Source: a virus. From it: 49,320 bases of DNA. A program made the translations under genes and the position numbers. This document shows, piece by piece, positions 27,831-42,608 of this stretch. The stretch lies in IMG/VR virus record IMGVR_UViG_3300008050_000019; one strand, given 5' to 3'. The notes beneath the pieces are model-generated. The model was given only the letters and a program-made list of their open reading frames with translations, made no database searches and was not told the origin of the DNA. Within the stretch, counting starts at the first letter, position 1. The number at the start of each line of letters is the position of its first letter.

Positions 27831-27937
27831 TTCCCTTCTCTAATAATGCTGTAATATTCTTGTATCTTCCGGGATATGATTGTATTACAATATTTTTAGG
27901 AATTGGAATTAATCCAATATCCAAACAAGGAGTTTCT

Positions 27938-28189
27938 ATGACTAGCAAAGTGTATCTCGTTATTCGTGAAGATGAGTTCGGTGACTCAGTCAAGATTGTC
28001 CCAGAAACCTATCAAATCGTAGGGTTTACTCACTCAAAAGAGTTGGCGGAAGCCGCAGCAAACAAGCTCAATCACACTGGGCGCGATGGATGTGGTCATG
28101 ACATCGACTTCAGTGATCCCTATTGGGGAGATGAGTTCTGTGATGGTGATATAACTGTCTGGACAGTCGAGGAAGTTGACGCACTCTAA
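27938..28189 (+). CDS. hypothetical protein (83 aa)
   Basis: CAAGGAG SD then ATG. Confidence 0.55.
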   Translation: MTSKVYLVIREDEFGDSVKIVPETYQIVGFTHSKELAEAAANKLNHTGRDGCGHDIDFSDPYWGDEFCDGDITVWTVEEVDAL

Positions 28190-28287
28190 TCTCATTTTCT
28201 AAGAATATTGTAATATTTTTGTATCCTTCGGGGTATGATCGTATTACAATATTTTTAGGAATTGGAAATTCCGAATAAGGAGCAACT

Positions 28288-28527
28288 ATGAGAAGCCCAC
28301 ATAGACTATCCGTGAAGGCAGCGGCAGAATTCTTCGAAGAACCAATTTGGCATAACTACGCCAATGGCAGCCTGATGTTGACCGAAGGTCGCAAGTATTT
28401 TGACTACTGCGCATCTCCCGCCCTAAAGTTCAAGGTGAGACTGGTGTCACCACATGATGTGACAGCGATCGTTTATCAGGGCAACTGCCTCTTTGAGGCA
28501 CTGCATGCATATAATGAGTTAGACTAA
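28288..28527 (+). CDS. hypothetical protein (79 aa)
   Basis: AATAAGGAG SD then ATG. Confidence 0.55.
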   Translation: MRSPHRLSVKAAAEFFEEPIWHNYANGSLMLTEGRKYFDYCASPALKFKVRLVSPHDVTAIVYQGNCLFEALHAYNELD

Positions 28528-28530
28528 TTA

Positions 28531-28589
28531 GTCGAAACGGGTTTAACCCGTCACTTGGGAGTTCCTTCCCAGGTCTGATGAGACAGGAG
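28531..28589 (+). ncRNA. hammerhead ribozyme, type II (HH1); predicted cleavage after C28552
   Basis: GUC-GAAA-[ACGGG-uuuaa-CCCGU]-C|A-[CUUGGGA-guuccu-UCCCAGG]-U-CUGAUGA-GAC-AGGAG; 3' AGGA can pair loop-I UCCU. Confidence 0.8.
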
Positions 28590-28594
28590 CATAG

Positions 28595-28903
28595 ATGAAA
28601 TTATCCGAACTTAAGAAGCAAATCGTTACGCTGGAAGAACGATTCCCAGGGGAGAATATCGAGGTTCGTGTGGGGACCAACGCAAAAATTGATCCCTTCC
28701 TGTCCCAAGTCGTGACCACAGGTCTGCGATTTCACAATTCCAGCCCGCCATTCTACGGGCATGAAATCCAGAGCCCACCAATGGAAGCCAGGGTGGTTTT
28801 GCACATCACTGTCACACAGAAGCCAGTCATTGTCGATCCCATTGCTCACGCTGATGACTTTGATATCCGTGATAGTCAGTGTCGGAACCCTTCCCAGGAT
28901 TAA
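28595..28903 (+). CDS. hypothetical protein (102 aa) downstream of HH1
   Basis: GGAG SD 6 nt after ribozyme core, then ATG. Confidence 0.55.
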   Translation: MKLSELKKQIVTLEERFPGENIEVRVGTNAKIDPFLSQVVTTGLRFHNSSPPFYGHEIQSPPMEARVVLHITVTQKPVIVDPIAHADDFDIRDSQCRNPSQD

Positions 28904-28907
28904 CAAA

Positions 28908-29165
28908 ATGTCAGCAGACAACAACATCCTAAACAACCTCACACCAAAAGAGAAAACACTCGTTGAGTATGCGACGATGGTCGAAAGGATGCGAATCGCG
29001 AAGATTGTGCATGCTCAAATGGATGACATGCAGAAGGTGGTCGACGGTCCGCGAGACAACATTAAGGGGTACTATGAAATGCTACCCCAGCTGTTAAGCG
29101 GGATTAGTGTGTTAAAGTTTACCTTTGACAACATCACCAAGGAGCCTTCCGATGACACAGACTGA
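28908..29165 (+). CDS. hypothetical protein (85 aa)
   Basis: MSADNNILNNL...; ORF-track upstream extension overlaps previous gene. Confidence 0.45.
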   Translation: MSADNNILNNLTPKEKTLVEYATMVERMRIAKIVHAQMDDMQKVVDGPRDNIKGYYEMLPQLLSGISVLKFTFDNITKEPSDDTD

Positions 29166-29487
29166 AAGAGCCATTCGGCAATCTGAGCGTGAGGACATTG
29201 TCCAGCAATTACAGGCCAAGCTTGATAAGCTTACGCTTCGAATCGAAAGCTGGTCAGATGAAGGTGATAGACCATTCAGCCTAATCAGGGCATGCATAGC
29301 ACAGGAATGTGTCCTTAAAGACATGATTGAGGAGATCACGTATGATGCTGATCTTACTTTCTCTAATGATGTGGCGGGTGTGTATGTGTTTGCAGATGAT
29401 GGTTCCGCGGGTGATGGTCTTCCTGATGAAGCAATGTGTGCGTTGAATAATTTTTGCATGTTCCTGGACGTCATCATCCGAAAGTGA
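29152..29487 (+). CDS. hypothetical protein (~111 aa)
   Basis: ATGA overlap with previous stop; alternative start 29125. Confidence 0.45.
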   Translation: MTQTERAIRQSEREDIVQQLQAKLDKLTLRIESWSDEGDRPFSLIRACIAQECVLKDMIEEITYDADLTFSNDVAGVYVFADDGSAGDGLPDEAMCALNNFCMFLDVIIRK

Positions 29488-29488
29488 T

Positions 29489-30040
29489 TCACTCCCTGTG
29501 AACAGCACGAAAAGTAGCCGTTAACCCTTCCTCTTTATTCCTGGCGAGACACCACAGCCTATACTCAGAAACCGTCATTGGCTGTCCATTGATGCTGTAA
29601 CTCTCCGCCCGAGTCTTTGTTCTACGTGACCAACTTCTGTATGAAGGTCCAGTCTCGCAGTGTTCTCTTCCTTCGAACATATGCTGTTCTGACCATACAC
29701 TCCCGTCTTCATCATATACTATCACAGCCGGTCCATCTTCTCTATGGTATAGACCATGAGTATAATACTTATCTGTGAGCTTAATTCCTTGTCTCGTCAT
29801 GCAGTATGCAGGCCCATCCGTTCTATGATAGATGCCTAGCGGTCCCTTAAAATCAGCTATCGAAGGATTAAAGAGCCTCTGATCACCTGCAAAACCCACC
29901 CTATGTTGATAAATTTGATAAATGCTGTTCTGTGAAAGTGTACTATCTATCATCACAAAGTGTGCAGAGACTTCATAACCCTCAAGCTTTCTTACAATCT
30001 TGAGAGTATTCTCGTCATAGATACTAGACGTCCATTCCAT
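29489..30040 (-). CDS. HREDGPA / MORN-like repeat protein
   Basis: YHRTDGPAY, YHREDGPAV repeats; leaderless TGTGATATTATAAAAT-ATG. Confidence 0.6.
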   Translation of the reverse strand: MEWTSSIYDENTLKIVRKLEGYEVSAHFVMIDSTLSQNSIYQIYQHRVGFAGDQRLFNPSIADFKGPLGIYHRTDGPAYCMTRQGIKLTDKYYTHGLYHREDGPAVIVYDEDGSVWSEQHMFEGREHCETGPSYRSWSRRTKTRAESYSINGQPMTVSEYRLWCLARNKEEGLTATFRAVHRE

Positions 30041-30106
30041 ATTTTATAATATCACATCTAGCGAGCTCCTACAACATATTTTACTCACGCTCGCCGGCGC
30101 AAAAAG

Positions 30107-30433
30107 TTATCTTTTAAAAGTTGATTCTAAGCCCTTTTTGCAGCCTCTAACAAGGCAATGTAGCCTGAATATTTCGATTGACAGCACCACTCCCTCTTGA
30201 TACCAGATCTGATAATAAACCTCACCTGTGTGGTAATATGAGATGTATGCTGGCCCATCGTCTCTGTGTATTAAGCCATTTACATACCAGCGCTCGTAGT
30301 TAATGTTGCCATTTGGGTAATAAGCGATAACTGCTGGCTTATCTTTCCTATGTGGTCTGCAGTTTTGATACCAGTATTCTGAGCTAATTTTGCCGTTTGA
30401 ATAATAATCAATTATTGATTCAGCACCATCCAT
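30107..30433 (-). CDS. HREDGPA / MORN-like repeat protein with conserved C-terminal tail
   Basis: WYxNGxxHRDDGPA repeats; tail FRLHCLVRGCKKGLESTFKR; leaderless TGTGATATTATAAACTG-ATG. Confidence 0.65.
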   Translation of the reverse strand: MDGAESIIDYYSNGKISSEYWYQNCRPHRKDKPAVIAYYPNGNINYERWYVNGLIHRDDGPAYISYYHTGEVYYQIWYQEGVVLSIEIFRLHCLVRGCKKGLESTFKR

Positions 30434-30640
30434 CAGTTTATAATATCACATCTGATGAACTTTTGCAACATATTTTACTCACACTCGCCGGCGCAAAAAG
30501 TTATCTTTTTTTGAAAAAAAGGGTTATAAGAGCACATTATCATGAACGGTAAAAAATCATTAAAGTTGCAAAAGCTGTATTAAATGAGACAGGAATGTCA
30601 TATAATATTTTAAGGGACAGGAAAATTATAATGAGCAAGC

Positions 30641-30985
30641 TTAATCATCACGCCAATCTTCGATATCGTATATCCCGTACGTATCTTTCAAGGGTTGTTC
30701 TTTACCTGTCATTAGCAGGTAAACACGATACAGTTCTATTGGTAGTTCCTCTCCATGTAAATAAAAGATAGCGTTTTTTCTTAGTGAGTTGCTATGAGCA
30801 AAAACAACCGCTGGACCATCTTCTCTGTGCGTGATACAAGAAGCATCACGATAATGCACCAAAATAAGCTCGCCATAATCGTCTTTTACTTTTCTTAGAA
30901 ACCCACCATTAGGTAAGGAAATTCTGCTAATCATATTGCACGCTTCATATTTGATAATATCACATCTGGTGAACTCTTGCAACAT
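30641..30985 (-). CDS. HREDGPA / MORN-like repeat protein
   Basis: THREDGPAVVF; tail LYRVYLLMTGKEQPLKDTY; leaderless TGTGATATTATCAAAT-ATG. Confidence 0.55.
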   Translation of the reverse strand: MLQEFTRCDIIKYEACNMISRISLPNGGFLRKVKDDYGELILVHYRDASCITHREDGPAVVFAHSNSLRKNAIFYLHGEELPIELYRVYLLMTGKEQPLKDTYGIYDIEDWRDD

Positions 30986-31089
30986 ATTTTACTCGCATCC
31001 ACCCCGGGGCAAGTATACCGCTAACTGTTCTTATTTTGTGTCAAATGTTCCTAATTCGTGGTATAATTTATATAGAAATGAGGAACATA

Positions 31090-31586
31090 TGAAGTTTAGT
31101 TCTATTAAGTGCTTTCTAGGGTTTCATGATTGGTTTCGCATGTATCGATCAGCAGAACAAAACAAGAGGTACGATGGTGTACCCTTGCAGGATGCGTATG
31201 CGTACATTACCGTCTGGGAGGCATGGAAGTTAGGGACCACCATTGGCGGGAGGCATATTACACAGACTTCTACAGCTCGACAAAAAAACTTTATTGCCGA
31301 CATCCATCGTGACAAAACATGCATACACTGCAAGAAGGTTAATCTGAGGTTTGAAAAGTTGCTAGTTTCGTGTGAAGCGAAGCAAGCAGTAAGAGATCGT
31401 GCTAGAGTCGCCGAGTTGGGGCGCCAAAACTGCATTCCCATTGACACTTATGTAGCCAGGATCTGTGAAGCACGTGAAGCGTATGGTAAGCCTGTAACAC
31501 CTCTAGTGACAGGTAAGGCCCAGGGGAAGCTTTCAATAGCAGAACTTGGGCCAGGAAACATCTCACTTTCAGAAAAGAGTAAATAG
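31090..31586 (+). CDS. CFxGxHDW / CxxC / GKLSIAE family paralog 1
   Basis: MKFSSIKCFLGFHDWF ... DKTCIHCKKVNLRFEKLL ... GKLSIAELGPGNISL; AGGAACAT then ATG. Confidence 0.55.
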
Positions 31587-31587
31587 T

Positions 31588-32064
31588 ATGTCATTAAAAA
31601 GGCTACTGTGTTTCATTGGTAGACATGATTACCATAACGTTCCTAAAACATTTGAACATGCCACTAAGTTCAAAGCAATTGAACTTTACTGGATAGTGCG
31701 ACAGCTTACACCAGCGCAATTTTCTGCGTGTAACATTTCCCTAGAGAGATCACTTAACCAGAAGCACCTGCAAGTCAATAAAGCAAAAATCTTATGCACG
31801 ATACATGATAGTGTGTGCGTAAGGTGTAATAATGTCGACTTAGCATTTACGAAGATTCTTTCTGGAGCGGAGAAGGCAATCAGTGAGGCATGCACCAAAA
31901 ACCAACGAGATGCTGCCAGAAACAATGAGTATGAAGAAATGGTCAAGAAGGCTAGAATGATATACTTTGATGAAAGGCCAGCCCACACTCTTATAACAGA
32001 TGGGAAGCTTTCAATAGCAGAACCACATAATGGTAGGGTTTCTATACCTAGGAGTCACAAATAA
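31588..32064 (+). CDS. CFxGxHDW / CxxC / GKLSIAE family paralog 2
   Basis: MSLKRLLCFIGRHDY ... DSVCVRCNNVDLAFTKIL ... GKLSIAEPHNGRVSIP. Confidence 0.55.
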   Translation: MSLKRLLCFIGRHDYHNVPKTFEHATKFKAIELYWIVRQLTPAQFSACNISLERSLNQKHLQVNKAKILCTIHDSVCVRCNNVDLAFTKILSGAEKAISEACTKNQRDAARNNEYEEMVKKARMIYFDERPAHTLITDGKLSIAEPHNGRVSIPRSHK

Positions 32065-32065
32065 T

Positions 32066-32587
32066 ATGGGTTGGAAAAAGTTGCAATGTTTCATTGGGTG
32101 GCATGATTGGTGCAACGCTCTGCCAACGGTCGAGCAAATAAAGAGGTGGGATTCCTTAGATATTGCTCATATCAAGCAAGCAGCCAGCTGGGCCGTCCGT
32201 AGTCATTCTAAGAAGGAAGTCAAGTATTTTTATCGTGATAAAGCATGTAGGCGATGCGAGAAGATTGATTTGGCACATGAAAAGCTGCTGGAAGAATCAG
32301 AAAAGATAGAGTATAAAAGCACCCAAATTGAGCATAAGTCCAAAGATATAGAACATATTCTGATAAGTAAGATTACGGGTGCTAGGATGCAACGCCATAA
32401 AGAGCTTGTCGCAGGGACAGAGATAAAACAATCTTCTGGTGGGAAGCTTTCAATCGCAGAAAATGTTGAGGGGAGCGTTTCGCTGCCAAGTGATGAGACT
32501 TTAAAAGCACGACACACAGAAGATGAGCTTGATTTCGAAGTTAGTCAACAAAGAGAAGCAAAAATAGTAGACAATTACGTTTCTTAA
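32066..32587 (+). CDS. CFxGxHDW / CxxC / GKLSIAE family paralog 3
   Basis: MGWKKLQCFIGWHDW ... DKACRRCEKIDLAHEKLL ... GKLSIAENVEGSVSLP. Confidence 0.55.
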   Translation: MGWKKLQCFIGWHDWCNALPTVEQIKRWDSLDIAHIKQAASWAVRSHSKKEVKYFYRDKACRRCEKIDLAHEKLLEESEKIEYKSTQIEHKSKDIEHILISKITGARMQRHKELVAGTEIKQSSGGKLSIAENVEGSVSLPSDETLKARHTEDELDFEVSQQREAKIVDNYVS

Positions 32588-32908
32588 AGTTAGGAGGGGA
32601 TGGGTAAGAGCATAAAAGCAGCATAATTGTGAGGCTCGAAAAAAGGGCCGAGCCAAGTCCCACCAGCCCCCGTCGCCAGCCACTACTATCCCACGCCTCC
32701 CCACATAAAAAATAACACCTTCCCACAATCATGAGGTCATCATCTAGCCCTATGATTCGAGGGATATATGTACACTTGTCGTTCTGTGCTTGATTAAATC
32801 CGAGTGATTCTGTGCATTTCTGTGCTGTTCCAGCATACCATATACAAAGCATCAAAAAACATGTGGGGATATGTGTGCTAAAAAGCACCAGATGTGGTAT
32901 AATAAAGG

Positions 32909-33463
32909 ATGAAAAATATAATCTTAGCTGGCCTATTTACTCTAACTGTGGGGTGTGGACCTGCAATCGAAAAAGAAGACTTCATTGGTGCATGGACTTA
33001 TTATAGCGGAATTTCGACAGACATATGTTCTAATGGTCAAACACAAGTACGTTCCGCTGCAGGCGCAACAATCGCATATGAACAGAAGGGTGACCTCATA
33101 AGGGCGTATGGCATAAATGACACCAATGTAGGGGAACTTATATTTGGTGATGATGGGTTCTATTACAAGTTAAACAAGAATAAGCTTGTGGCAGAAGGAC
33201 CCCAGTCTCAATGTTGGAGAATTTACAATGGCAATTACCCCTATGAATGTCTAACCCAAGAAGAAGCCACGTTCAGCATGGAGTATTCAAATGTTAAACG
33301 AGAAGGTGCTGAAGATGTTGAGGAGCTGGTCATAACCATGGCAGGTAGTGGTCACCATGAAGGATTGCTTAGTAATGATACACGTGATGTTGGTTTGTCT
33401 TGTGACTATACAATAGAGGGTAAGTTGTTGTTCAACCCTATTGCAACCAACTTGTTAGACTAG
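32909..33463 (+). CDS. predicted secreted lipoprotein (184 aa)
   Basis: MKNIILAGLFTLTVGC signal and lipobox. Confidence 0.55.
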   Translation: MKNIILAGLFTLTVGCGPAIEKEDFIGAWTYYSGISTDICSNGQTQVRSAAGATIAYEQKGDLIRAYGINDTNVGELIFGDDGFYYKLNKNKLVAEGPQSQCWRIYNGNYPYECLTQEEATFSMEYSNVKREGAEDVEELVITMAGSGHHEGLLSNDTRDVGLSCDYTIEGKLLFNPIATNLLD

Positions 33464-33600
33464 TTCTATTCCTTTAGTCTATCCTAGATCTTTGCTTTAT
33501 TTTGGTTTGCTGCCCTGGATGAGGGCTTGATATGGCAGCCACATGGCGGAGGAGTGGGGCAACACAATCATCATCAAGTATATGTCCGTCCTTCCTTTCT

Positions 33601-33660
33601 AATGTCGAAACACCTTCGGGTGTCATATTGGGTGACCTCCAACGTCTGATGAGATAGGTC
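33601..33660 (+). ncRNA. hammerhead ribozyme, type II (HH2); predicted cleavage after C33624
   Basis: GUC-GAAA-[ACACC-uucg-GGUGU]-C|A-stemI(UUGGG..GACCU..CCAA)-CUGAUGA-GAU-AGGUC; AGGUC pairs loop-I GACCU. Confidence 0.8.
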
Positions 33661-33671
33661 AAGGAGAAGTT

Positions 33672-34247
33672 ATGAGCGCATCTAGAAGAGACACTCAAGT
33701 AAGCAGATTAAAGAAAATCCTCCCGGGAGTACTTCAGACGAAGGGTATAATGTGCTTCATCCATGCTTATGATGAAGGCGGAATGAACCGAGCCTGGGAA
33801 AATGTTGATACAGAAGACAAGCAGGCATTCATGGCTTTCTGTGAAAGCATCATGGATGAAGAGCTAGAGTACTTGGCCGCCTTTCTTGGTCATGGTGATG
33901 AAAGCCTAAGTAGCCTATTCTCTGATTTCCTTGAAAAAATGGAGGTTCTATTTCAAATAGAATCAGACAAGGAGTATACAGAACAGCAAAACGCCCACAA
34001 CGAGTGGGTGAAAACTACCAGGACCTCGAACCAGGGGAAAGTCATTACTCGAGGTGATCGCGTCTTATCGGAATCTGGAATGACTGGTGTGGTCGTCGGG
34101 GTGGTTTCTGAGACGGCACAACACTTTGGGTCCATTAAAGTATGGAATGAAGACACCAAGGGGTGTTGTGACCAATGCGGAGAAAATCCCACTCGCACAT
34201 TTTCATTTAGCAATTGGGAATCAGAATTAATAATTCTCGATAAGTAA
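33672..34247 (+). CDS. hypothetical protein (191 aa) downstream of HH2
   Basis: AAGGAG SD overlaps ribozyme 3' tail; ATG 33672. Confidence 0.55.
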   Translation: MSASRRDTQVSRLKKILPGVLQTKGIMCFIHAYDEGGMNRAWENVDTEDKQAFMAFCESIMDEELEYLAAFLGHGDESLSSLFSDFLEKMEVLFQIESDKEYTEQQNAHNEWVKTTRTSNQGKVITRGDRVLSESGMTGVVVGVVSETAQHFGSIKVWNEDTKGCCDQCGENPTRTFSFSNWESELIILDK

Positions 34248-34329
34248 CATCCTTGTATCCTTCGTGTCCTTCTTGTATTAAAATATTTCAGGATTCGGGA
34301 ATCACCCAATCTTTTGAGATAGGATTCAT

Positions 34330-34392
34330 ATGTACGAATTGTTGAGTGGCATCTTTATTTTTTCAATCACCATCATGTCAGTGTTTGCCTGA
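34330..34392 (+). CDS. candidate micro-ORF encoding 20-aa hydrophobic peptide MYELLSGIFIFSITIMSVFA
   Basis: ATG..TGA behind a module-like promoter CTTGTATTAAAATATTTCAGGATTCGGGAATCACC. Confidence 0.2.
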   Translation: MYELLSGIFIFSITIMSVFA

Positions 34393-34483
34393 TGTTGGAA
34401 GCTGTCTTAAACTGAGTGGAACGCCGTATTGACGCTATTGGTGGCATGAGTTGCAGAGCATGTCCAATTTAAAATCGGCTGCA

Positions 34484-34540
34484 TTCGAAACGCCCTAAGG
34501 GCGTCATGTTGGGTGACCTCCAACGTCTGATGAGATAGGT
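34484..34540 (+). ncRNA. hammerhead ribozyme, type II (HH3); predicted cleavage after C34505
   Basis: GAAA-[ACGCCC-uaa-GGGCGU]-C|A then sequence identical to HH2 from stem I onward; stem III differs by compensatory changes. Confidence 0.75.
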
Positions 34541-34552
34541 CAAGGAGAAGTT

Positions 34553-34678
34553 ATGAATATCACGAAACCCAAACCCACATCTGCAGTTATTACGCACACC
34601 TGCGGGCCAGCCGAGAAGACGTATAAAGTTACAAGCACCGTCAAGCTCAAGAAAGTGAGCACAAAGGAGCTAAAATAA
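34553..34678 (+). CDS. small ORF (~41 aa) downstream of HH3
   Basis: AAGGAG SD then ATG; MNITKPKPTSAVITHTCGPAEKTYKVTSTVKLKKVSTKELK. Confidence 0.35.
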   Translation: MNITKPKPTSAVITHTCGPAEKTYKVTSTVKLKKVSTKELK

Positions 34679-34680
34679 CA

Positions 34681-34929
34681 ATGATGTACTTTGTAGGAAC
34701 TGCACAAGAGGAAAATAAGAACTCACTTAAGTATTTTTTGACCCAATTGTGTTCCTCTGTCGAAACAGAGGACGGACCGGAAGCTGCAGCTAAGCTATAT
34801 GCAGCCGATATGGATAGCGTTGACAGGGAAGATCTCGTTATTTATGTTATAAGTCAACGAACCACTTGTACTGTACGCAATGAAACTGTTTCGACGGTTA
34901 CGGATATAGAAACAAAAGATGAAAAATAA
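34681..34929 (+). CDS. hypothetical protein (82 aa)
   Basis: six-frame ORF directly after previous stop. Confidence 0.45.
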   Translation: MMYFVGTAQEENKNSLKYFLTQLCSSVETEDGPEAAAKLYAADMDSVDREDLVIYVISQRTTCTVRNETVSTVTDIETKDEK

Positions 34930-35006
34930 GTATCATCTGTAGGATGCCAGTGTTACAATATTCTTGGAAATAGGAAATAAAGCCTATCTCCAATGGAGTA
35001 TATAGC

Positions 35007-35537
35007 ATGGCTGGCATCAACTCAATCGACATCTACTCAATTCCACATTCGCAATCCAAGAAAGCTGGCATTACCAATGTCGACTTCATCGCGTTATACC
35101 TCATGAAATATGGACCAACGAAGTACACGCCACTTCGTAATGCACTTCTGCGTTGGCGGGGCATCAATCCTAAGAGGGCATCTCGTGGATACCTCACCAA
35201 CTACTTCAGCGGAGCACCCTCAAGTGGTCGATACAGGGCATACAGTGACGGCTATGCTGGACTTACCTACGGGTTTGGAGTTAGGTACGGCCCTATCACC
35301 CACAACTGGAGAGCATATTGGTGGAAACCAGAGACGTCCATTCGCACAGAAACCCAAGTCATGCGGGAAATTCCGATCTATAAAGATGGTAAAGAGACTG
35401 GAGAAACGAAGAGCATTCCGCAATTGGACGTCACTATGACCCCATCCGGACACCACAATGATCCTTTCCAACTTACTGGACGAGGCAAGAGGCGGGCGAC
35501 TTTGGTATTAAAGACCATCACTTCCCTAAAGCTCTAA
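35007..35537 (+). CDS. hypothetical protein (176 aa)
   Basis: promoter CCAGTGTTACAATATTCTTGG then ATG. Confidence 0.55.
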   Translation: MAGINSIDIYSIPHSQSKKAGITNVDFIALYLMKYGPTKYTPLRNALLRWRGINPKRASRGYLTNYFSGAPSSGRYRAYSDGYAGLTYGFGVRYGPITHNWRAYWWKPETSIRTETQVMREIPIYKDGKETGETKSIPQLDVTMTPSGHHNDPFQLTGRGKRRATLVLKTITSLKL

Positions 35538-36032
35538 ATCCCTCTCAGCTGCTCGCCTCTTTGCTTCCTGCAAATTTTCTAATGCCATAATAAGTGATTC
35601 AAGTTCGCTTGTTGAATTTGTTCCACCTACCCCTCGGACACACCAGTTCATCGGCCTAGGCCTCCCACTCATATCTGGTTGATTATTTTGCCAGACATGG
35701 GTGGTAATTTTATCATCTTTATAGGCTTTGCGAACGATATCAATCAACACGCAGGCTGTCATTATGTCACTGAAGTCTGGCCACCATCGCTGCTGATCTA
35801 GCAGTTCAGTGTAAACATGATATCTGCCTGGCCCAAACCAACCGTCTTCAGTGATAATGTCATTGCACAACCTCCCCCAGATAAGATCATTCGTAGGGTG
35901 GTTGTATCTCATACCATCCCTGAGCTCATCAGATGATGTACATGCGTTAAATAGTTCACCAAGAGCGTGCCAATAATCTCTATCTTTTGTCATTCTAGTC
36001 ACCGCACTCGATTGTTTTAACGCAACCATCAT
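35526..36032 (-). CDS. hypothetical protein (168 aa), last gene of 7-gene minus-strand operon
   Basis: six-frame ORF. Confidence 0.5.
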   Translation of the reverse strand: MMVALKQSSAVTRMTKDRDYWHALGELFNACTSSDELRDGMRYNHPTNDLIWGRLCNDIITEDGWFGPGRYHVYTELLDQQRWWPDFSDIMTACVLIDIVRKAYKDDKITTHVWQNNQPDMSGRPRPMNWCVRGVGGTNSTSELESLIMALENLQEAKRRAAERDLEL

Positions 36033-36225
36033 GATGGCAAAATAGATTAATCAATCCACTTTCCGTGCGAACAGAGCAGTTATTAACTGAGCAGTGAACG
36101 CCAGTTATCGGGATGCCAAGATCGTCTGCCCACTTTTTTGCAAGAACATCTCTTGGTACTGATCCGCAACATGAAATGCAGCTAGCAAGTACGAGTAAAA
36201 CTACCCACTCAACTATATGTTTCAT
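35995..36225 (-). CDS. predicted lipoprotein (76 aa)
   Basis: MKHIVEWVVLLVLASC signal and lipobox; Cys-rich. Confidence 0.5.
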   Translation of the reverse strand: MKHIVEWVVLLVLASCISCCGSVPRDVLAKKWADDLGIPITGVHCSVNNCSVRTESGLINLFCHHDGCVKTIECGD

Positions 36226-36228
36226 TTG

Positions 36229-36666
36229 TTATGCTTTCTGCCTGTATACAGATCCGATGTCAATCCACTTTCCCCCGATGTGGTTGCCAGCATGGTTATC
36301 ACGTTGTTCATAGATGATCCCATCTACAGAAAACTCTTCTGGAGGGTGAACGAAGCAGACGCCACCGGGCTGCACATACGCTGGAAGTTGTTCTTTACAT
36401 AGCATACGGCGCTGCAGGACCAAGACAGACATGCGACCATTTATAGCGCGCTGGACAACTTCCAGCTCTAGGATGGGTGCGACTGGAATATCCATTTTTC
36501 CAAGAAAAGCTTGATGCACAGCGAGCGTGTCGTCGTACATCATAGATAATTTAAGAACTGTGTTACCGGGCATGGGCCAAACATATGACTCAGTACCATA
36601 CCAGGGTGGATACCCATAGGCTTCTTTGAGACTATTTAATATATGATTGTCTAATTCGAGATTCAT
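36229..36666 (-). CDS. hypothetical protein (145 aa)
   Basis: six-frame ORF. Confidence 0.5.
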   Translation of the reverse strand: MNLELDNHILNSLKEAYGYPPWYGTESYVWPMPGNTVLKLSMMYDDTLAVHQAFLGKMDIPVAPILELEVVQRAINGRMSVLVLQRRMLCKEQLPAYVQPGGVCFVHPPEEFSVDGIIYEQRDNHAGNHIGGKWIDIGSVYRQKA

Positions 36667-36872
36667 CTGTTGCCCTCTCTTACGGCTCGGATCTTTTTTT
36701 CGAAGTCAAAAACGGCATGATAAAGAGAGTGAAGGTCTGCTCGATGATCAGAGTCCCATTCTGATGGATTATTAATCCTCTCGTTCATTGCTTCGAGCAG
36801 ACCTTCACACCCATCAATAATCTTGTCGCAGTGTGGTGTTAACTGTTGTTCATCTGGTGTATATGACATCAT
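36663..36872 (-). CDS. hypothetical protein (69 aa)
   Basis: ATGA-type overlap with downstream gene. Confidence 0.45.
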   Translation of the reverse strand: MMSYTPDEQQLTPHCDKIIDGCEGLLEAMNERINNPSEWDSDHRADLHSLYHAVFDFEKKIRAVREGNR

Positions 36873-36876
36873 GTCC

Positions 36877-37275
36877 TCAAATATCTAAAGCTGTGGTTTG
36901 TTTAACCAGCACCCGTGTTCGTCCTCTTGTTACGGTTGCTTGATATGTGAATGGTCGGCCAGAACAATCATATGCTGACTCAGCCCATTCAACATTGAGA
37001 TCAAAGTCATGAGCGATGTCGATGTCTGGAGTACCAGCTGAGTATACTTTCCATCGTGTCCAGGACTCACCGCAACCGCCCTTGTCGGACACTCCCTCAG
37101 ATAAAATGGGCTGAGTGCATTCCCATAATACTTTCCCTAGGAGATAAGCAAATTCATCCCGTGCCCTAAACTCATCAGGTGAGCACTCCAGCTCCTTCAG
37201 GCGCCTAAGAACTTCTTTTAAAGAAACACCAGGAATGCGATAAAAGGTATGACGTGAGTGCGGGTAAGGCTTCAT
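36877..37275 (-). CDS. hypothetical protein (132 aa)
   Basis: six-frame ORF. Confidence 0.5.
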   Translation of the reverse strand: MKPYPHSRHTFYRIPGVSLKEVLRRLKELECSPDEFRARDEFAYLLGKVLWECTQPILSEGVSDKGGCGESWTRWKVYSAGTPDIDIAHDFDLNVEWAESAYDCSGRPFTYQATVTRGRTRVLVKQTTALDI

Positions 37276-37284
37276 ATTTCCTCC

Positions 37285-37476
37285 TTAGAGCAAGCTTCGT
37301 AAGTCTGCAACGAGTGCTTTGCACCTAACGTATTGACTCAAATATGTGATTGTATCTTCGACGTCGGTTGGATCAACCGGTTCACCAGCTCGACCCCTTT
37401 CGAGAAGAAGCTCTCCATACTCAACCTGCTTATCGAAGATATCAACAATCTCGAATGCTGCATCACAATCGAACAT
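37285..37476 (-). CDS. hypothetical protein (63 aa)
   Basis: six-frame ORF. Confidence 0.4.
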   Translation of the reverse strand: MFDCDAAFEIVDIFDKQVEYGELLLERGRAGEPVDPTDVEDTITYLSQYVRCKALVADLRSLL

Positions 37477-37811
37477 CAGTTAAGCTCAGGTTCTTGGCAA
37501 ATGAAATAGTTATTGGCCATTTCCATAGCTTCCAAGAAGCCGTCAAGAGGAAACTCATATCCGCCCCTGTCACGGCGGGCATAGGACCCATCATGTTTAA
37601 TGATGAAAGTATATCTTGCTTCAGCGCTTGTTGTACCTACACGATGCTCACTATCAGCAAAGCTATGATACACATATCCAGAGACATCAGTCTCATTAGG
37701 AAATGCTTGTTCAGCATTTACCTGCAGAGCTTTGAAAAGCTGGTTTGCAGAGTAAGTATTAATGTCAGCCGTAGTTCCAGGTGGGAGTTTATTTTTCAAT
37801 TCTGGCCTCAT
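37476..37811 (-). CDS. hypothetical protein (111 aa), first gene of operon
   Basis: minus-strand TGTGTTATAATATTATTAGGAA-ATG promoter at 37812..37845. Confidence 0.5.
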   Translation of the reverse strand: MRPELKNKLPPGTTADINTYSANQLFKALQVNAEQAFPNETDVSGYVYHSFADSEHRVGTTSAEARYTFIIKHDGSYARRDRGGYEFPLDGFLEAMEMANNYFICQEPELN

Positions 37812-37854
37812 TTCCTAATAATATTATAACACATGTATTAAACCTATGTTACGT

Positions 37855-38013
37855 TTATTTTTCCTGTTGTCTCAGTACTCGAGGCGCAAGCTTCGGCGCA
37901 TAGCACGGCGTTGATACCGCTTCATCATCCTGCGGCCGTTGGGTCCGTAATCCCGTAAGCCGATAGAAATCGCTTCCGACATAGAATTCACTATACTTAT
38001 TAACCTTTGTCAT
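37855..38013 (-). CDS. small basic ORF (~52 aa), near-leaderless
   Basis: minus-strand ATGTTATAATATTCTTACG-ATG. Confidence 0.25.
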   Translation of the reverse strand: MTKVNKYSEFYVGSDFYRLTGLRTQRPQDDEAVSTPCYAPKLAPRVLRQQEK

Positions 38014-38276
38014 CGTAAGAATATTATAACATATTCATGAAACAAAAGAACTTGTTTTTATCATTTTGTGTATAATATTATCACCGATTTTATATAACCA
38101 CAGCCGCATAAGTGCTATTAGGCTCACCTCTCGGGGACTGGATATCCTTTATTATATGGATATATATCCAAAATTATGGTTTATTAGAGGTGAGCCCAGG
38201 AATACCGTCAATAAAAGTAAGATAGTGAAATCTGTTGTATCTTCAGATTCAATGATGTGTTATAATATTTTAACCG

Positions 38277-38555
38277 ATGGAAATACCACAAAGCGTTCAC
38301 GAAAAAGTTCATAGTGTTGAGTCACAATGGCATTATACTATCATGACAAAGTATGGTTATAAGACTGAAGTGAGGGAGCGTAAGGGGCTTGTTCGTTCGT
38401 ATAATTATTCATCATCCAATGATTGTAAAGACATCACTTGCTCGACCGGCGTCAACGGAGATCATTGGTTTACCAGATCCGAGTGTGGCGGGTGGGCGGG
38501 AGGGTATGCAGGTGAACTAGAAGATTACCTTCGCTCAATTACGGAAACTAAATAG
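38277..38555 (+). CDS. hypothetical protein (92 aa), leaderless
   Basis: TGTGTTATAATATTTTAACCG-ATG. Confidence 0.5.
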   Translation: MEIPQSVHEKVHSVESQWHYTIMTKYGYKTEVRERKGLVRSYNYSSSNDCKDITCSTGVNGDHWFTRSECGGWAGGYAGELEDYLRSITETK

Positions 38556-38593
38556 TATCATTGGTTAAACATACGTGTTATAATATATCTACA

Positions 38594-38884
38594 ATGACAA
38601 AGGTTATTAACAACAACGCCCCACACAGAATCACATTGTCGCTTACACTGAATCCTGCTAAGGATGCAGTCAGAATTCAAAGCTCTGATGGCGATGCTGC
38701 AGAGATCAGGGTTAAAGACTTGCACGGGTGGGATTCTAATCAAGAACCACCCCAAGCTATGCTTAATGTAGGCTCCGAAATCCTCAGTGATTTCTGCTCA
38801 GGGCAAGATGTTCGAATGATGAGCAAGCGCCTGTGGGGAAATCAAGTAACCATCTTTTACACGCTCTATCCAAACGAAGGGTAA
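38594..38884 (+). CDS. hypothetical protein (96 aa), leaderless
   Basis: CGTGTTATAATATATCTACA-ATG. Confidence 0.5.
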   Translation: MTKVINNNAPHRITLSLTLNPAKDAVRIQSSDGDAAEIRVKDLHGWDSNQEPPQAMLNVGSEILSDFCSGQDVRMMSKRLWGNQVTIFYTLYPNEG

Positions 38885-38889
38885 TCACG

Positions 38890-39228
38890 ATGACAATTCG
38901 AACATACTCCTATGTCCTGACAGCCTGTATTGATGGGTCTTCACCCATTCCCATTGGCCATTTTCCTGATTGGTCTTCGGCACTGGAATTTGTCACAAAA
39001 AGTGTACCCCCGACCCAAAAACATTGGGTGGAACATGACGGCTCCACGGACATTGAATACATTAACATCACACCCATTGTGATGTACCCATCTTCGCTAC
39101 AGGAAGCCTCTGACTCTGTCAGGCAAACAAAAGAGCTGGTTGATTTTGGCGCATGGCCATGCTGGTCTACCGAAGACGGCAAAAAGCCGGTGTCATTCAA
39201 TAGCATAAGAAACACGTCAGAGATTTAA
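38890..39228 (+). CDS. hypothetical protein (112 aa)
   Basis: 5 nt after previous stop. Confidence 0.45.
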   Translation: MTIRTYSYVLTACIDGSSPIPIGHFPDWSSALEFVTKSVPPTQKHWVEHDGSTDIEYINITPIVMYPSSLQEASDSVRQTKELVDFGAWPCWSTEDGKKPVSFNSIRNTSEI

Positions 39229-39269
39229 TCGTTTCATTAGTATCCTGTCTGTATTATAATAATCACACA

Positions 39270-39491
39270 ATGGATATGTTCATGATCTTCGATCAATCTG
39301 GCCCAAGCAATGATTTGCTGGGATCATTTCCCTCAGAAGGTGAAGCAAAACACTTCGCATATGCACAGTCAAGGGGATACGACTACTGTCAAGGTCTCAA
39401 AGTGCCTTCAGGCACCCCCGTCGAACTCCTCGACCCAGACTGTGACGATGCCGAGCTTGAGGAGTATGGCATCACTCGATTCCAAATATAA
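39270..39491 (+). CDS. hypothetical acidic protein (73 aa)
   Basis: TGTATTATAATAATCACACA-ATG. Confidence 0.5.
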   Translation: MDMFMIFDQSGPSNDLLGSFPSEGEAKHFAYAQSRGYDYCQGLKVPSGTPVELLDPDCDDAELEEYGITRFQI

Positions 39492-39540
39492 AATATTCCT
39501 TTCTTCAGTATCTCACCTGTGTTATAATATTCTTACAATT

Positions 39541-39741
39541 ATGACAGGAACAAACAAACCCACAATGTGTAAAGGTAAGCTCGAAGCTGTTGCTAATGAG
39601 CGCCGCCGGATCTTGGACTTCTTCGAAGCCACTGCTGCGAGACTTGAGGCCAATATGTCAAAAGGTGACGCTGAAGCTGAAGCTGCTTGTGCTCAACTAT
39701 CAATTCTGCAGGAGCTGGAGGATGTTGTCCTAAATAAGTGA
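39541..39741 (+). CDS. hypothetical coiled-coil protein (66 aa)
   Basis: TGTGTTATAATATTCTTACAATT-ATG. Confidence 0.5.
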   Translation: MTGTNKPTMCKGKLEAVANERRRILDFFEATAARLEANMSKGDAEAEAACAQLSILQELEDVVLNK

Positions 39742-39802
39742 TAATGCCTGTATCTATCGAGTCAAGACAGTGTTAATATATTCTTAGGAATTGAGGAACA
39801 AC

Positions 39803-40180
39803 ATGAAATTAGAAATTACTCTTGCACCATGTATTAAACAACTCGGCGGCGGACCTGAAAGTGAACTGCAGTTTGAGCCCGCGATCACTGTCAACGTGTA
39901 CGAAGCAGCGCGGCCGCCAAGAAATACGATGCCGAAAAGTGTTGAGTCTACCACGGATTTATTTCCAGCCGAAGACGAAATTGAACTCACTCTTAAAGCG
40001 CGCCAGTCTGGTGTCTTGCTAGAACAAACTAGGGTTTTAGCACTGGTTAACGAAATGCATGAGACTCTATGCGAAGCTCTTAAGGAAGATGGCCACTTCA
40101 ACGGGAATCACACCAAGTATGATGCTCAGATTGATGCACTCAATCAACTCCAAAAATTAATTTTGGGCACAGAAAAATAA
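39803..40180 (+). CDS. hypothetical protein (125 aa)
   Basis: AGTGTTAATATATTCTTAGGAATTGAGGAACAAC-ATG. Confidence 0.5.
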   Translation: MKLEITLAPCIKQLGGGPESELQFEPAITVNVYEAARPPRNTMPKSVESTTDLFPAEDEIELTLKARQSGVLLEQTRVLALVNEMHETLCEALKEDGHFNGNHTKYDAQIDALNQLQKLILGTEK

Positions 40181-40195
40181 AGGTATCCATCGAAC

Positions 40196-40313
40196 CAAGA
40201 CAGTGTTAATATAAACCAACAAACCGGATAATGGAAATTAAATAAAGAGAAAAAATAAAGAAAAAATAAAGTATCTTTAGAGCCAAGACAGTGTTAATAT
40301 AAACCAACAAATG
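40196..40313 (+). repeat. two 29-nt direct repeats CCAAGACAGTGTTAATATAAACCAACAAA (promoter-like) flanking A-rich spacer
   Basis: copies at 40196..40224 and 40285..40313; third related copy at 39762..39790. Confidence 0.6.
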
Positions 40314-40403
40314 ATGAAAGGCGGAATTAAAATGAAGAAAACCTGACGATCTTGACTTTAATAAATAAATGCAAAACTGGGAATTAAGAAACGGAAAGAA
40401 AAA

Positions 40404-40460
40404 GCCGAAACGCTGAGAAGCGTCTGCTAAGACTAACCCCTTGGCACTGATGAGGCAGGT
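40404..40460 (+). ncRNA. hammerhead ribozyme, type II (HH4); predicted cleavage after C40424
   Basis: GCC-GAAA-[CGCU-gaga-AGCG]-UC|U-[GCUAAG..UUGGC]-A-CUGAUGA-GGC-AGGU. Confidence 0.7.
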
Positions 40461-40569
40461 AAATAAATTAATTACCTTGTTTCAATTGAATTAAGAATGT
40501 AATAATATATTCTTACAAACGGGGATTGGAAATTCCCCCTCAACATTCAAAAGAAAGCAATAACCAATT

Positions 40570-41214
40570 ATGCCTAAAGCAATCAACTTCGTCTCCGGCC
40601 AGTCTTACAACGTCTTCGAGGACAAGGGTTCCGCCATCAATGGTAAGGGTCAGCTCCAAATTTCCGAAAACAAGAATAAGGGGAGCATCACCCCAAGCAT
40701 GGACCTCACGTACGTCGGTCGTGGGGCAAAGGACACTCCCAACGCCGGCAAGGATATCTTCGACTTGCCTGCTGGGGTGGTACTTCAAGGCCAAAGCCAA
40801 ATCGTTGGCCACAAGAACCACTTCGATTCCCAGACCGAATACAATCTCGCCAAGAACGGAAGTGCCCGAAAGGGTACTTTGGCGGAGCAGATTGCCGACG
40901 TCAGGAGCCGGCTGGCTTCGAATGCCACTTTCCGCCTCAAGCTTGAAGGGCAAATTGCTGCTCTTGAGGTTAAGCAGTCCGAACAAGAAGTAGCTGAGGA
41001 GCTTGCGGCACAGGTGAATGCTGCGGCTGCTGCTGATTTGGCTGCTGCAGAAGCTGAAGGGCCTAGCGCCCCTGAAGAGGTCTCTGAGGCTGACGCTGAG
41101 GAAGCGGAAGCATTGGCTGCTGCAGAAGCGGAGAGTGATTCCGAGGTCGACCTTGAGGCTTTGATGGGGAGCCTTACGGAATCTACGCCAGTCGTCGACT
41201 ACGACGAAGCCTAA
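40570..41214 (+). CDS. GC3-rich paralog family member 3 (214 aa, acidic Ala/Glu-rich C-terminus)
   Basis: GQSYNVFEDKGS...PSMDLTYVGRGAKDTP...VGHKNHFD matches 19144 and 21873 genes. Confidence 0.7.
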   Translation: MPKAINFVSGQSYNVFEDKGSAINGKGQLQISENKNKGSITPSMDLTYVGRGAKDTPNAGKDIFDLPAGVVLQGQSQIVGHKNHFDSQTEYNLAKNGSARKGTLAEQIADVRSRLASNATFRLKLEGQIAALEVKQSEQEVAEELAAQVNAAAAADLAAAEAEGPSAPEEVSEADAEEAEALAAAEAESDSEVDLEALMGSLTESTPVVDYDEA

Positions 41215-41228
41215 GCCGAAAGGGCTAA

Positions 41229-41287
41229 GCCGAAACCCCCTCGGGGGTTATCCTAGGGTTACCTCCTAGGGTCTGATGAGGCAGGTT
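41229..41287 (+). ncRNA. hammerhead ribozyme, type II (HH5); predicted cleavage after GUU at 41249
   Basis: GCC-GAAA-[CCCCC-ucg-GGGGG]-UU|A-[UCCUAGGG-uuaccu-CCUAGGGU]-CUGAUGA-GGC-AGGU. Confidence 0.7.
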
Positions 41288-41309
41288 CCCTCCCTATTCT
41301 TAGGAAAAC

Positions 41310-41546
41310 ATGAAACAAAAAATTACTCGGGCAATGAACAAATCTGATTGGAAGTGCCCATGTCATGGTAAACAAGTTGTTGAAAAGCGGCGGATGAGAG
41401 AGGATAATCAAGGCCGACGTAAATACGCTGGTACATATTTTTCATGCCCCCAGTATTCTGAGTGTGGCTACTACGTCTCAGGGACATTTCAAGTCCCACT
41501 AACTGATGATGCTGGCATCGCCCTTAACCGTCAAAAGAAAGACTAA
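41310..41546 (+). CDS. hypothetical protein with CxxC...C...CxxC motif (78 aa)
   Basis: WKCPCHG ... FSCPQYSECGYY. Confidence 0.5.
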   Translation: MKQKITRAMNKSDWKCPCHGKQVVEKRRMREDNQGRRKYAGTYFSCPQYSECGYYVSGTFQVPLTDDAGIALNRQKKD

Positions 41547-41549
41547 GAT

Positions 41550-41750
41550 ATGAGTAAAATGTACATTGTTGTTGACCAAACTACACCCAAAGATGTGGTG
41601 GCCTTAGCAACGGGTGACCAAATTGAAGCAGAAGAATATGCGGTCAAGTATGACCCAAGCCACTTCAACATGCGAATCATTTGCCTTTCACCAGGTGACA
41701 CCATCGTTCCAGGTGCTAATGAACGCTTCCCGGGTAAAGTAATTTTCTAA
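41550..41750 (+). CDS. hypothetical protein (66 aa)
   Basis: six-frame ORF. Confidence 0.45.
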   Translation: MSKMYIVVDQTTPKDVVALATGDQIEAEEYAVKYDPSHFNMRIICLSPGDTIVPGANERFPGKVIF

Positions 41751-41810
41751 GTCGAAACGGGCTTCGGCCCGTCGTTCTGGAATGACTCCCAGGGCCTGAT
41801 GAGACAAGTC
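41751..41810 (+). ncRNA. hammerhead ribozyme, type II (HH6); predicted cleavage after C41773
   Basis: GUC-GAAA-[CGGGC-uucg-GCCCG]-UC|G-[UUCUGG..CCAGGGC]-CUGAUGA-GAC-AAGUC; AAGUC pairs loop-I GACU. Confidence 0.8.
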
Positions 41811-41836
41811 TTAACCTTAAACAAAACGAGAACTTT

Positions 41837-42016
41837 ATGAAGACTATGGGATTTTTTGGATTTCTTTTTGCGCTGATTTTCCTTGTTGCCGGTGCGGAAC
41901 TTGGCTATAGCGTTTTTAAATCAGCAACTGATCAGTGTGATGTCCGGCTTCCGATCGACGCATATCTACATGGGCAGTGGTTGTGCCCCGAAACCAACAT
42001 CATTGGTGAACGATGA
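41837..42016 (+). CDS. small predicted membrane protein (~58 aa)
   Basis: MKTMGFFGFLFALIFLVAGAELGY... one TM helix; stop overlaps next ATG. Confidence 0.35.
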   Translation: MKTMGFFGFLFALIFLVAGAELGYSVFKSATDQCDVRLPIDAYLHGQWLCPETNIIGER

Positions 42017-42240
42017 AGCAGTCTAATTCAAGCGATTTCATCTTCTGGGCGGCTGCAGCAGCCACCATTGGGTCCGCTTGTTTATCAATCGGGTTTGTGT
42101 TAGGTAACCTTTGGTTAAGCCTAAGCTTCGGCGCAAGTGCATTGAAGGCTTTCACCAAAGGATGTGACAGAACGTACACCATTGAAAAATATGTCAGTGG
42201 TGATTGGTTCTGCGAAGCGAAAACCCCCTACACACGATAA
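42013..42240 (+). CDS. small predicted membrane protein (75 aa)
   Basis: two hydrophobic segments. Confidence 0.45.
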   Translation: MKQSNSSDFIFWAAAAATIGSACLSIGFVLGNLWLSLSFGASALKAFTKGCDRTYTIEKYVSGDWFCEAKTPYTR

Positions 42241-42301
42241 GTCGAAACGGGCTTCGGCCCGTCATTCTGGTCTAACCTCCAGAATCTGATGAGACAGGTT
42301 A
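42241..42301 (+). ncRNA. hammerhead ribozyme, type II (HH7); predicted cleavage after C42263
   Basis: GUC-GAAA-[CGGGC-uucg-GCCCG]-UC|A-[AUUCUGG-ucuaaccu-CCAGAAU]-CUGAUGA-GAC-AGGUUA; AGGUUA pairs loop-I UAACCU. Confidence 0.8.
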
Positions 42302-42606: not shown

Positions 42607-42608
42607 AT

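Follow-up and report, generated by a model that had tools for sequence, protein, structure and literature searches.

Seven type-II hammerhead ribozymes in same-strand spacers of a probable phage genome, and their likely role in processing of polycistronic transcripts

Type-II hammerhead ribozymes, including their permutation, their stems II of one to three pairs, and the pseudoknot that the 3' tail forms with loop I, were described by Perreault et al. (2011, PLoS Comput Biol 7:e1002031; PMC3088659). In that study, the pseudoknot was validated by mutation and was found to be required for rapid cleavage by hammerheads with a very short stem II. Candidates were accepted when standard pairs were present at positions 10.1-11.1, 1.1-2.1, and 15.1-16.1. 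Tandem prophage hammerheads cut polycistronic constructs of about 2 kilobases (kb) in vitro, one set was active in vivo, and it was proposed that clustered prophage hammerheads flanking single genes process transcripts. More recently, in vivo cleavage was detected with cyPhyRNA-seq for three type-II hammerheads of Desulfovibrio vulgaris that are located near phage-like genes (Olzog et al. 2021, PMC8782182). A 2019 review (PMC6765202) regarded the purpose of bacterial and phage hammerheads as unresolved and stated that 'additional work is needed', and no later paper settling this purpose was found in the literature that we searched. Here, we analyze seven type-II hammerheads in a stretch of viral DNA, the IMG/VR record IMGVR_UViG_3300008050_000019, of which one strand with a length of 49,320 nucleotides (nt) was used (hereafter, the window). 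The RNA type, the pseudoknot, the clustered arrangement, and the idea of processing were all already described in 2011, and the window adds a new member.

The assignment of the seven plus-strand elements to type-II hammerhead ribozymes is supported by matches to a curated model, by covariation, and by family-wide statistics. All seven have the same layout, i.e., a stem II strand of 2-3 nt, GAAA, the stem III hairpin, U-H, the stem I hairpin, CUGAUGA, the second stem II strand, and the tail. Together they span 13.8 kb (Table 1). The composite pattern CGAAAC..GTY..CTGATGA occurred eight times, compared with 0.01 occurrences expected from dinucleotide-preserving shuffles, and seven of the eight were the copies reported here. 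The eighth occurrence, at 23393, is situated in a coding region; it scored 7.6 bits with the model R1 introduced below and was thus discarded as a chance match. With the Rfam model Hammerhead_II (RF02276), six copies reached the gathering score of 37 bits (37.7-40.8 bits) in full-length alignments covering model positions 1-66. The Rfam check that the original prediction had proposed therefore held for six copies but not for copy 2, whose score is lowered to 29.0 bits by an A·C mismatch in stem I.

A covariance model built from the seven copies (R1) was also applied to all 49,320 bases, with the filters switched off. It recovered exactly the seven copies with 66-84 bits (76.6, 70, 74.8, and 83.8 bits for copies 1, 2, 3, and 7, respectively), while the runner-up scored 13 bits, and no further or degenerate hammerhead copies were found in the whole window. 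Covariance models of hammerhead I and III, twister, twister-sister, pistol, hatchet, and hepatitis delta virus (HDV)-like ribozymes had no match in the window at E <= 1-10. When both halves of the window were searched for other Rfam families at a permissive E-value, only tRNAs and noise below the thresholds were retrieved (mir-205, snoRNAs, and preQ1-II with 33 bits versus a threshold of 47 bits). A reading of the elements as intrinsic terminators was rejected: no plus-strand terminator-like site was present at any of the seven positions, and the total of 14 such sites compares with 13.4 expected from shuffles.

To compare the copies, base pairs were numbered outward from the core anchors; MAFFT and model alignments shifted copy 5 one column out of register. 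The catalytic core was intact in all seven copies (C3-A9 = CUGAUGA, G12A13A14, A15.1-U16.1, and G10.1-C11.1), confirming the original claim of seven copies with a full type-II core. The nucleotide H17 was a C in six copies and a U in copy 5. All pairs adjacent to the core were standard pairs, namely G-C at 10.1/11.1 and A-U at 15.1/16.1 in every copy, and A-U, U-A, or G-C at 1.1/2.1. The predicted cleavage sites had been correctly placed on this core (Table 1), and the positions given for the copies were also accurate for six of them, but copy 2 starts at 33604 and not at 33601.

The stems have lengths of 5-6 base pairs (bp; stem III), 7-8 bp (stem I), and 3 bp (stem II; 2 bp in copy 3). Over five positions of stem III, 35 of 35 pairs were standard, with G-C, C-G, A-U, and U-A as alternatives at positions 3-5. 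Over seven positions of stem I, 48 of 49 cells were paired, so that the two stems contain a single non-pair in 84 cells, the A·C in copy 2. Two to four standard pair types were observed at each of positions 3-6 of stem III and positions 1-6 of stem I, and the covariation that had been claimed for both stems, with compensatory changes, was thus verified. A minimal stem II of 3 bp had likewise been described as co-varying. This was true for positions 10.2/11.2, where A-U and G-C alternate among the copies, but not for the length in copy 3 (UUC/GAU). In the minimum free energy (MFE) folds calculated with ViennaRNA, stems III and I were present in six of the seven copies, including copy 1, and the full three-way junction was present in copies 4, 5, and 6.

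The 3' tail of every copy can pair with loop I, as had been noticed originally, with 3-6 contiguous Watson-Crick pairs. Copy 1 has 4 pairs (tail AGGA(G), loop I UUCCU), copies 2 and 3 have 5-6 (AGGUC(A), (U)GACCU), copy 5 has 4 (AGGU, ACCU), copy 6 has 4 (AGUC, GACU), and copy 7 has 6 (AGGUUA, UAACCU). Compared with copies 2 and 3, copy 6 shows a compensatory double change from G-C to A-U. Relatives of this tail/loop subtype were collected with an exact pattern, which matched at least 120 IMG/VR stretches. R1 then identified 192 hammerheads in 80 of these loci. At least 4 contiguous pairs between tail and loop I were present in 92% of the 147 relatives that could be parsed, versus 11% with shuffled tails. 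The tail tetramers of the relatives (GGUC, GGUU, GGCG, GGUG, GGCA, GGCC, and others) are each complemented in loop I, and hence co-vary with it. The sequences of the window and of its relatives therefore support a loop-I/3'-tail pseudoknot. We also considered whether loop I mimics an anti-Shine-Dalgarno (anti-SD) sequence. The motif ACCUCC is present in copies 2, 3, 5, and 7, but it is not conserved in the wider family, and this candidate was rejected.

All seven ribozymes are located in intergenic spacers and have the same orientation as the flanking plus-strand open reading frames (ORFs). Copies 1, 5, 6, and 7 begin 0-14 nt past a stop codon, and in three of these (copies 1, 6, and 7) the distance is 0-3 nt. 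The ORFs concerned are 28288-28527, which ends 3 nt before copy 1; 40570-41214, which stops 14 nt upstream of copy 5; and 41550-41750 and 42013-42240, which are followed by copies 6 and 7 at a distance of 0 nt. On the other side, an ATG is found 10-31 nt downstream of stem II in all copies but copy 4. In copy 1 it is the ATG at 28595, 10 nt past stem II, and the pseudoknot tail AGGAG (28585-28589) doubles as its only SD motif. In copies 2 and 3, the SD motif AAGGAG precedes the ATGs at 33672 and 34553, both 16 nt past stem II. The ATG at 41310 is found 27 nt past stem II of copy 5, the ATG at 41837 follows copy 6 after 31 nt with a weak SD motif (GAGAA), and the ATG at 42313 follows copy 7 after 17 nt with the SD motif AAGGA. 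Copy 4 resides in a spacer of 390 nt, and 113 nt separate the end of its stem II from the ATG at 40570. The claim that every copy ends 5-25 nt before an SD motif or ATG was therefore right for five copies, applied loosely to copy 6 with its weak SD motif, and failed for copy 4.

For the gene after copy 7, the ATG at 42313, with AAGGA upstream, is likely to be the true start, rather than the in-frame ATG at 42289 inside CUGAUGA. The mechanical ORF call begins at 42289, and automatic gene callers could place a start within the ribozyme.

The placement between genes is a property of the family. In 77% of 150 IMG/VR relatives, an ORF of at least 40 amino acids ended with its stop codon at -6 to +3 nt from stem II, versus 6% for random positions on the same strand and 11% when the element was read on the opposite strand. 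The next ORF started 5-50 nt downstream in 77% of the 150, versus 36% for random positions, and the median distance of the start codon from stem II was 26 nt. Dense arrays were also present, with 5-7 copies in 2-3 kb: seven R1 matches were found in 2.4 kb in one locus (L025), and five or six in several others. At the Rfam threshold, the counts were six in 2.4 kb (L065), five (L075), and four each (L050 and L025). Seven copies in 13.8 kb are not exceptional.

Two pairs of copies are mosaics. Copies 2 and 3 match at 51 of 52 nt in a stretch that starts with C33624 and C34505, the 3' ends of their stems III, includes stem I, and extends one base past the ATG. Their stems III differ and the ORFs downstream of this shared block (33625-33675 and 34506-34556) are unrelated. 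The sole difference from stem I to the start codon is a G-to-A change in copy 2, and because this change creates the A·C mismatch, copy 2 looks like a weakened duplicate. Conversely, copies 6 and 7 are identical over 26 nt (41748-41773 and 42238-42263), comprising the TAA, the 5' strand of stem II, and stem III, and differ in stem I. These patterns suggest recombination or gene conversion within the ribozymes, or the reuse of a module consisting of ribozyme and ribosome-binding site (RBS).

A motif scan of the window revealed about 50 extended -10 promoter-like motifs, TGnTA(T/A)AAT, often as the longer form TGTTATAATATTCTTA, which shares an upstream tgtatct/cctgttctt element (examples in Table 1). 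Many of them lie 5-7 nt before an ATG (27546, 32909, and 44772; on the minus strand near 21390 and 21037), which suggests that the window contains many very short transcription units and leaderless mRNAs. No such motif was found by the scan at the junctions of copies 1-3 or of copies 5-7. Combining motifs and ORFs, we infer three likely transcription units. The first would comprise 27546..28527, copy 1, and 28595..29487; the second 32909..33463, copy 2, 33672..34247, copy 3, and 34553..35537; and the third 40570..41214, copy 5, 41310..41750, copy 6, 41837..42240, copy 7, and the region from 42313 to about 44700.

We consider it likely, judging from sequence and layout, that these hammerheads cut polycistronic phage transcripts into shorter mRNAs at same-strand intercistronic spacers. 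In the plus-strand transcript, each element would fold into a three-way junction with an open stem II of 2-3 bp and capped stems III and I. The 3' tail would pair with loop I, and this pseudoknot would keep stems I and II parallel and compensate for the very short stem II. The 2'-OH of H17 would then attack the next phosphate, and the RNA would break between H17 and N1.1. The upstream mRNA would end with the stem III hairpin and a 2',3'-cyclic phosphate. The downstream mRNA would carry its 5'-OH exactly where the stem I hairpin starts, and the tail, the SD motif, and the ATG would come after this hairpin. The products would be expected to separate at once, because only the 2-3 bp of stem II join them. 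As a net result, the three polycistronic transcripts would be converted to mRNAs of one or two genes with defined, hairpin-capped ends, and the stability and translation of neighbouring cistrons would be uncoupled.

The operon-processing role had been part of the original prediction, and the layout fits it with respect to the co-orientation, the copies abutting stop codons, and the six junctions devoid of a promoter motif, but copy 4 does not appear to be internal to an operon. This copy is situated between promoter-like motifs (40204 and 40292 upstream, 40498 downstream), and several further observations weigh against transcript processing as well. The pseudoknot of copy 4 (GGU/ACC) has 3 bp, fewer than the roughly 4 bp or more that characterize the type. 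In addition, a 12-bp hairpin at 40451-40484 (z = -3.3 versus shuffles) pairs G8-A9, the 3' strand of stem II, and the tail of copy 4 with the downstream UUACCUUGUUUC, and would compete with the active fold once transcribed. The score of copy 2 is below the Rfam threshold, and its MFE fold is no better than that of shuffled sequence; stem II of copy 3 has 2 bp only. Copies 2 and 3 are preceded not by an abutting stop codon but by non-coding spacers, of 140 nt after the ORF 32909-33463 and of 236 nt, respectively. In these spacers (33464-33603 and 34248-34483), no ORF of at least 40 amino acids, no promoter motif, and no match to an RNA family was found. Furthermore, the three transcription units are putative, as they were derived from motif matches. 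Finally, a stabilization of the products is likewise putative: going by bacterial RNA decay in general, hairpin-capped, non-phosphorylated ends should resist exonucleases and 5'-end-dependent attack by RNase E.

Active ribozymes might instead serve mainly for translational control or insulation of the downstream gene rather than for the separation of cistrons. Cleavage would give each gene a standard 5' end that is independent of the upstream sequence, as in RiboJ-type insulators, in which a hammerhead upstream of the RBS removes the upstream RNA and leaves a 5'-OH and a hairpin, rendering downstream expression independent of context. RiboJ itself was engineered from a satellite-RNA hammerhead and is neither type II nor a natural phage element. 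The tail of copy 1 is the sole SD motif for its gene, and the 52-nt block shared by copies 2 and 3, with its one mismatch, precedes unrelated ORFs, which suggests that ribozyme and RBS form one unit; the median start distance of 26 nt in the family also fits. Because the pseudoknot tail is the SD motif in copy 1 and lies 0-2 nt from it in copies 2, 3, and 7, ribozyme folding and binding of the 30S subunit would compete. Yet the start codon is found within 10 nt of stem II in only about 7% of the relatives, so that the overlap of tail and SD motif is no family feature, and loop I is not an anti-SD mimic that is conserved family-wide. This account also overlaps largely with transcript processing and is compatible with it; we regard it as unlikely to be the main explanation. 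A further reading, to which we likewise assign a low probability, is that hammerhead plus RBS is a single expression module in a phage that otherwise seems to rely on its roughly 50 extended -10 promoters, many of which apparently give leaderless mRNAs. For cistrons lacking a promoter, the hammerhead would create a 'primary-like' 5' end, the tail doubling as or abutting the SD motif would couple cleavage, release, and ribosome loading, the hairpin caps would set the half-lives of the mRNAs, and the mosaic copies would reflect swapping of the module by recombination.

Two more accounts appear highly improbable. According to one, pairs of ribozymes excise gene-length RNAs, and an RtcB-type ligase or the reverse reaction joins the ends to form circular or spliced RNAs. 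The segments between copies 2 and 3, 5 and 6, and 6 and 7 are indeed flanked on both sides and have lengths of 0.5-0.9 kb, and ends with a 5'-OH and a 2',3'-cyclic phosphate have the chemistry that such joining requires. But the two halves of such a segment, with the stem I side at its 5' end and the stem III side at its 3' end, stem from different copies, whose stem II strands match in some pairs only, and no RtcB-like protein was detected among the 20 window ORFs scanned against Pfam and PHROGs. The possibility had been raised by Perreault et al. (2011, PMC3088659), who sought such products and found none. The other account, equally improbable, takes the copies as mainly selfish or relic repeats that are kept as recombination joints for the shuffling of small gene cassettes, with cleavage being incidental or lost. 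It can draw on the mosaic structure (a common 5' half with different stems I in copies 6 and 7, and a common 3' half with different stems III in copies 2 and 3), on the destabilizing mutation of copy 2, and on the flanking genes, which are all ORFans. Against it, none of the seven copies has lost a catalytic nucleotide, the differences in the stems are compensatory and do not resemble decay, and the strict placement of the family on the coding strand, after a stop codon and before a start codon, points to selection on the RNA fold. Transcript processing remains the reading that we prefer.

The window is probably part of the genome of an uncultivated, large phage, as indicated by a tRNA array, small ORFan genes, PHROG matches, and similarity to PA5oct-type phages. 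On the minus strand at 400-8563, ARAGORN identified 26 tRNA genes and Rfam, at a permissive threshold, about 30; nearly all amino acids are covered. ARAGORN classified the 'tRNA-Sec' match of Rfam at 401-488 as a long-arm tRNA-Ser(UGA). Within the array, no suppressor tRNA was found, and no HDV-like or other ribozyme adjoins the tRNAs. In the scan of the 20 ORFs, those within or flanking the hammerhead operons had no Pfam or PHROG match, and the three ORFs that could be annotated are all distant from these operons (Table 1). One of them, a 534-amino-acid ORF, has weak similarity (26-34% identity over 25-38% of the length) to a protein, structural or hypothetical, from Pseudomonas jumbo phages of the PA5oct type. 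Almost all small genes of the window are ORFans. A megablast search with 28000-43000 gave no match among GenBank phages, and no relatives of the protein encoded between copies 4 and 5 were found in IMG/VR or in metagenome contigs. The only sequence returned by a lookup of the exact protein was a contig of 1830 nt that differs from the window at one base, and therefore provides no independent variation.

Repeated sequences with promoter-like -10 motifs were also observed. A direct repeat of 29 nt, CCAAGACAGTGTTAATATAAACCAACAAA, occurs twice upstream of copy 4 (40194-40222 and 40283-40311), and each repeat copy is followed by a tiny ORF only (4 and 11 codons). A similar promoter-bearing repeat of 50 nt is present at about 25145-25195 and about 25647-25697.

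Table 1. Positions of the hammerhead copies, their Rfam matches, promoter-like motifs, and annotated ORFs in the window
Feature	Position	Strand	Details
Copy 1	28531..28589	+	stem II GUC/GAC; stem III ACGGG(U)/(A)CCCGU; stem I ACUUGGGA/UCCCAGGU; predicted cleavage after C28552
Copy 2 (weakest)	33604..33660	+	stem II GUC/GAU (G·U); stem III ACACC/GGUGU, UUCG loop; stem I AUAUUGG/CCAACGU; predicted cleavage after C33624
Copy 3	34484..34542	+	stem II UUC/GAU (U·U at third position); stem III ACGCCC/GGGCGU; stem I AUGUUGG/CCAACGU; predicted cleavage after C34505
Copy 4	40404..40460	+	stem II GCC/GGC; stem III ACGCU/AGCGU; stem I UGCUAAG/CUUGGCA; predicted cleavage after C40424
Copy 5	41229..41286	+	stem II GCC/GGC; stem III ACCCC(C)/(G)GGGGU; stem I AUCCUAGG/CCUAGGGU (8 bp); predicted cleavage after U41249
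Copy 6	41751..41810	+	stem II GUC/GAC; stem III ACGGGC/GCCCGU, UUCG loop; stem I GUUCUGG/CCAGGGC; predicted cleavage after C41773
Copy 7	42241..42301	+	stem II GUC/GAC; stem III as copy 6; stem I AUUCUGG/CCAGAAU; predicted cleavage after C42263
RF02276 match, copy 1	28530-28592	+	39.6 bits
RF02276 match, copy 2	33603-33663	+	29.0 bits; below gathering score, surfaces only when the spacer is searched alone
RF02276 match, copy 3	34483-34544	+	38.0 bits
RF02276 match, copy 4	40403-40464	+	37.7 bits
RF02276 match, copy 5	41228-41290	+	37.8 bits
RF02276 match, copy 6	41750-41814	+	39.8 bits
RF02276 match, copy 7	42240-42303	+	40.8 bits
Extended -10 motif TGTTATAAT	27531..27539	+	motif scan; likely start of copy 1 unit
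Extended -10 motif TGGTATAAT	32895..32903	+	motif scan; likely start of unit with copies 2 and 3
Extended -10 motif TGTAATAAT	40498..40506	+	motif scan and ORF map; downstream of copy 4, likely start of unit with copies 5-7
Extended -10 motifs, examples	19079, 21631, 21722, 21812, 25180, 25682, 27531, 32895, 38258, 38576, 39520, 39771, 40204, 40292, 40498, 44758	+	motif scan
Extended -10 motifs, examples	38031, 37831, 21406, 21053, 8168	-	motif scan
Trypsin-like peptidase (PF13365)	11197-12078	+	Pfam
Phosphoribosyltransferase-domain protein (PF00156)	2168-3043	-	Pfam; inside tRNA region
534-amino-acid ORF	9532-11136	-	two PHROG families of unknown function

Existing knowledge is not changed by these results, and the likely operon-processing role is an already published hypothesis. 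The new sequence confirms the tight packing of type-II hammerheads between a stop codon and the RBS that follows, and the frequencies obtained for the relatives, of which 77% abut a stop codon and 92% have a pseudoknot with 4 bp or more, lend numerical support to this placement rule. The window offers a compact test case, with three inferred operons, a promoter motif for contrast, and seven ribozymes of graded quality, one of which is weakened, one has a competing hairpin, and one has a tail that is the SD motif.

With RF02276 and the type-II hammerheads of Perreault et al., the copies share the invariant core, the permutation with an open stem II and capped stems I and III, a stem II of 2-3 bp, and the pseudoknot between loop I and the tail. 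An A often precedes stem II in both, and in copies 6 and 7 the upstream stop codon ends with this A. In contrast, the scores of the window copies are barely above the threshold (37.7-40.8 bits), and their pairing is AGGU(Y)/(R)ACCU, whereas the Rfam consensus is of the AGCC/GGC type. Because the AGGU(Y)/(R)ACCU subtype is abundant in IMG/VR, it represents a common variant and not a new one. In D. vulgaris (PMC8782182), type-II hammerheads also reside beside hypothetical or phage-like genes, and one pair is about 300 nt apart; there, cellular RNA was shown to carry the 5'-OH and 2',3'-cyclic phosphate ends, whereas cleavage of the copies described here is predicted. The clusters in prophages of Clostridium scindens and Azorhizobium caulinodans and at the ardA locus of Agrobacterium tumefaciens (Perreault et al. 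2011, Fig. 3) similarly consist of co-oriented intergenic hammerheads around individual phage genes or small groups of them, the identity of which varies, and the proposed role is the same, i.e., the conversion of long phage transcripts to mRNAs of operon or gene length. The window differs from these clusters in that its seven copies in 13.8 kb come from a phage that is uncultivated, probably large, and equipped with a tRNA array, and not from a prophage.

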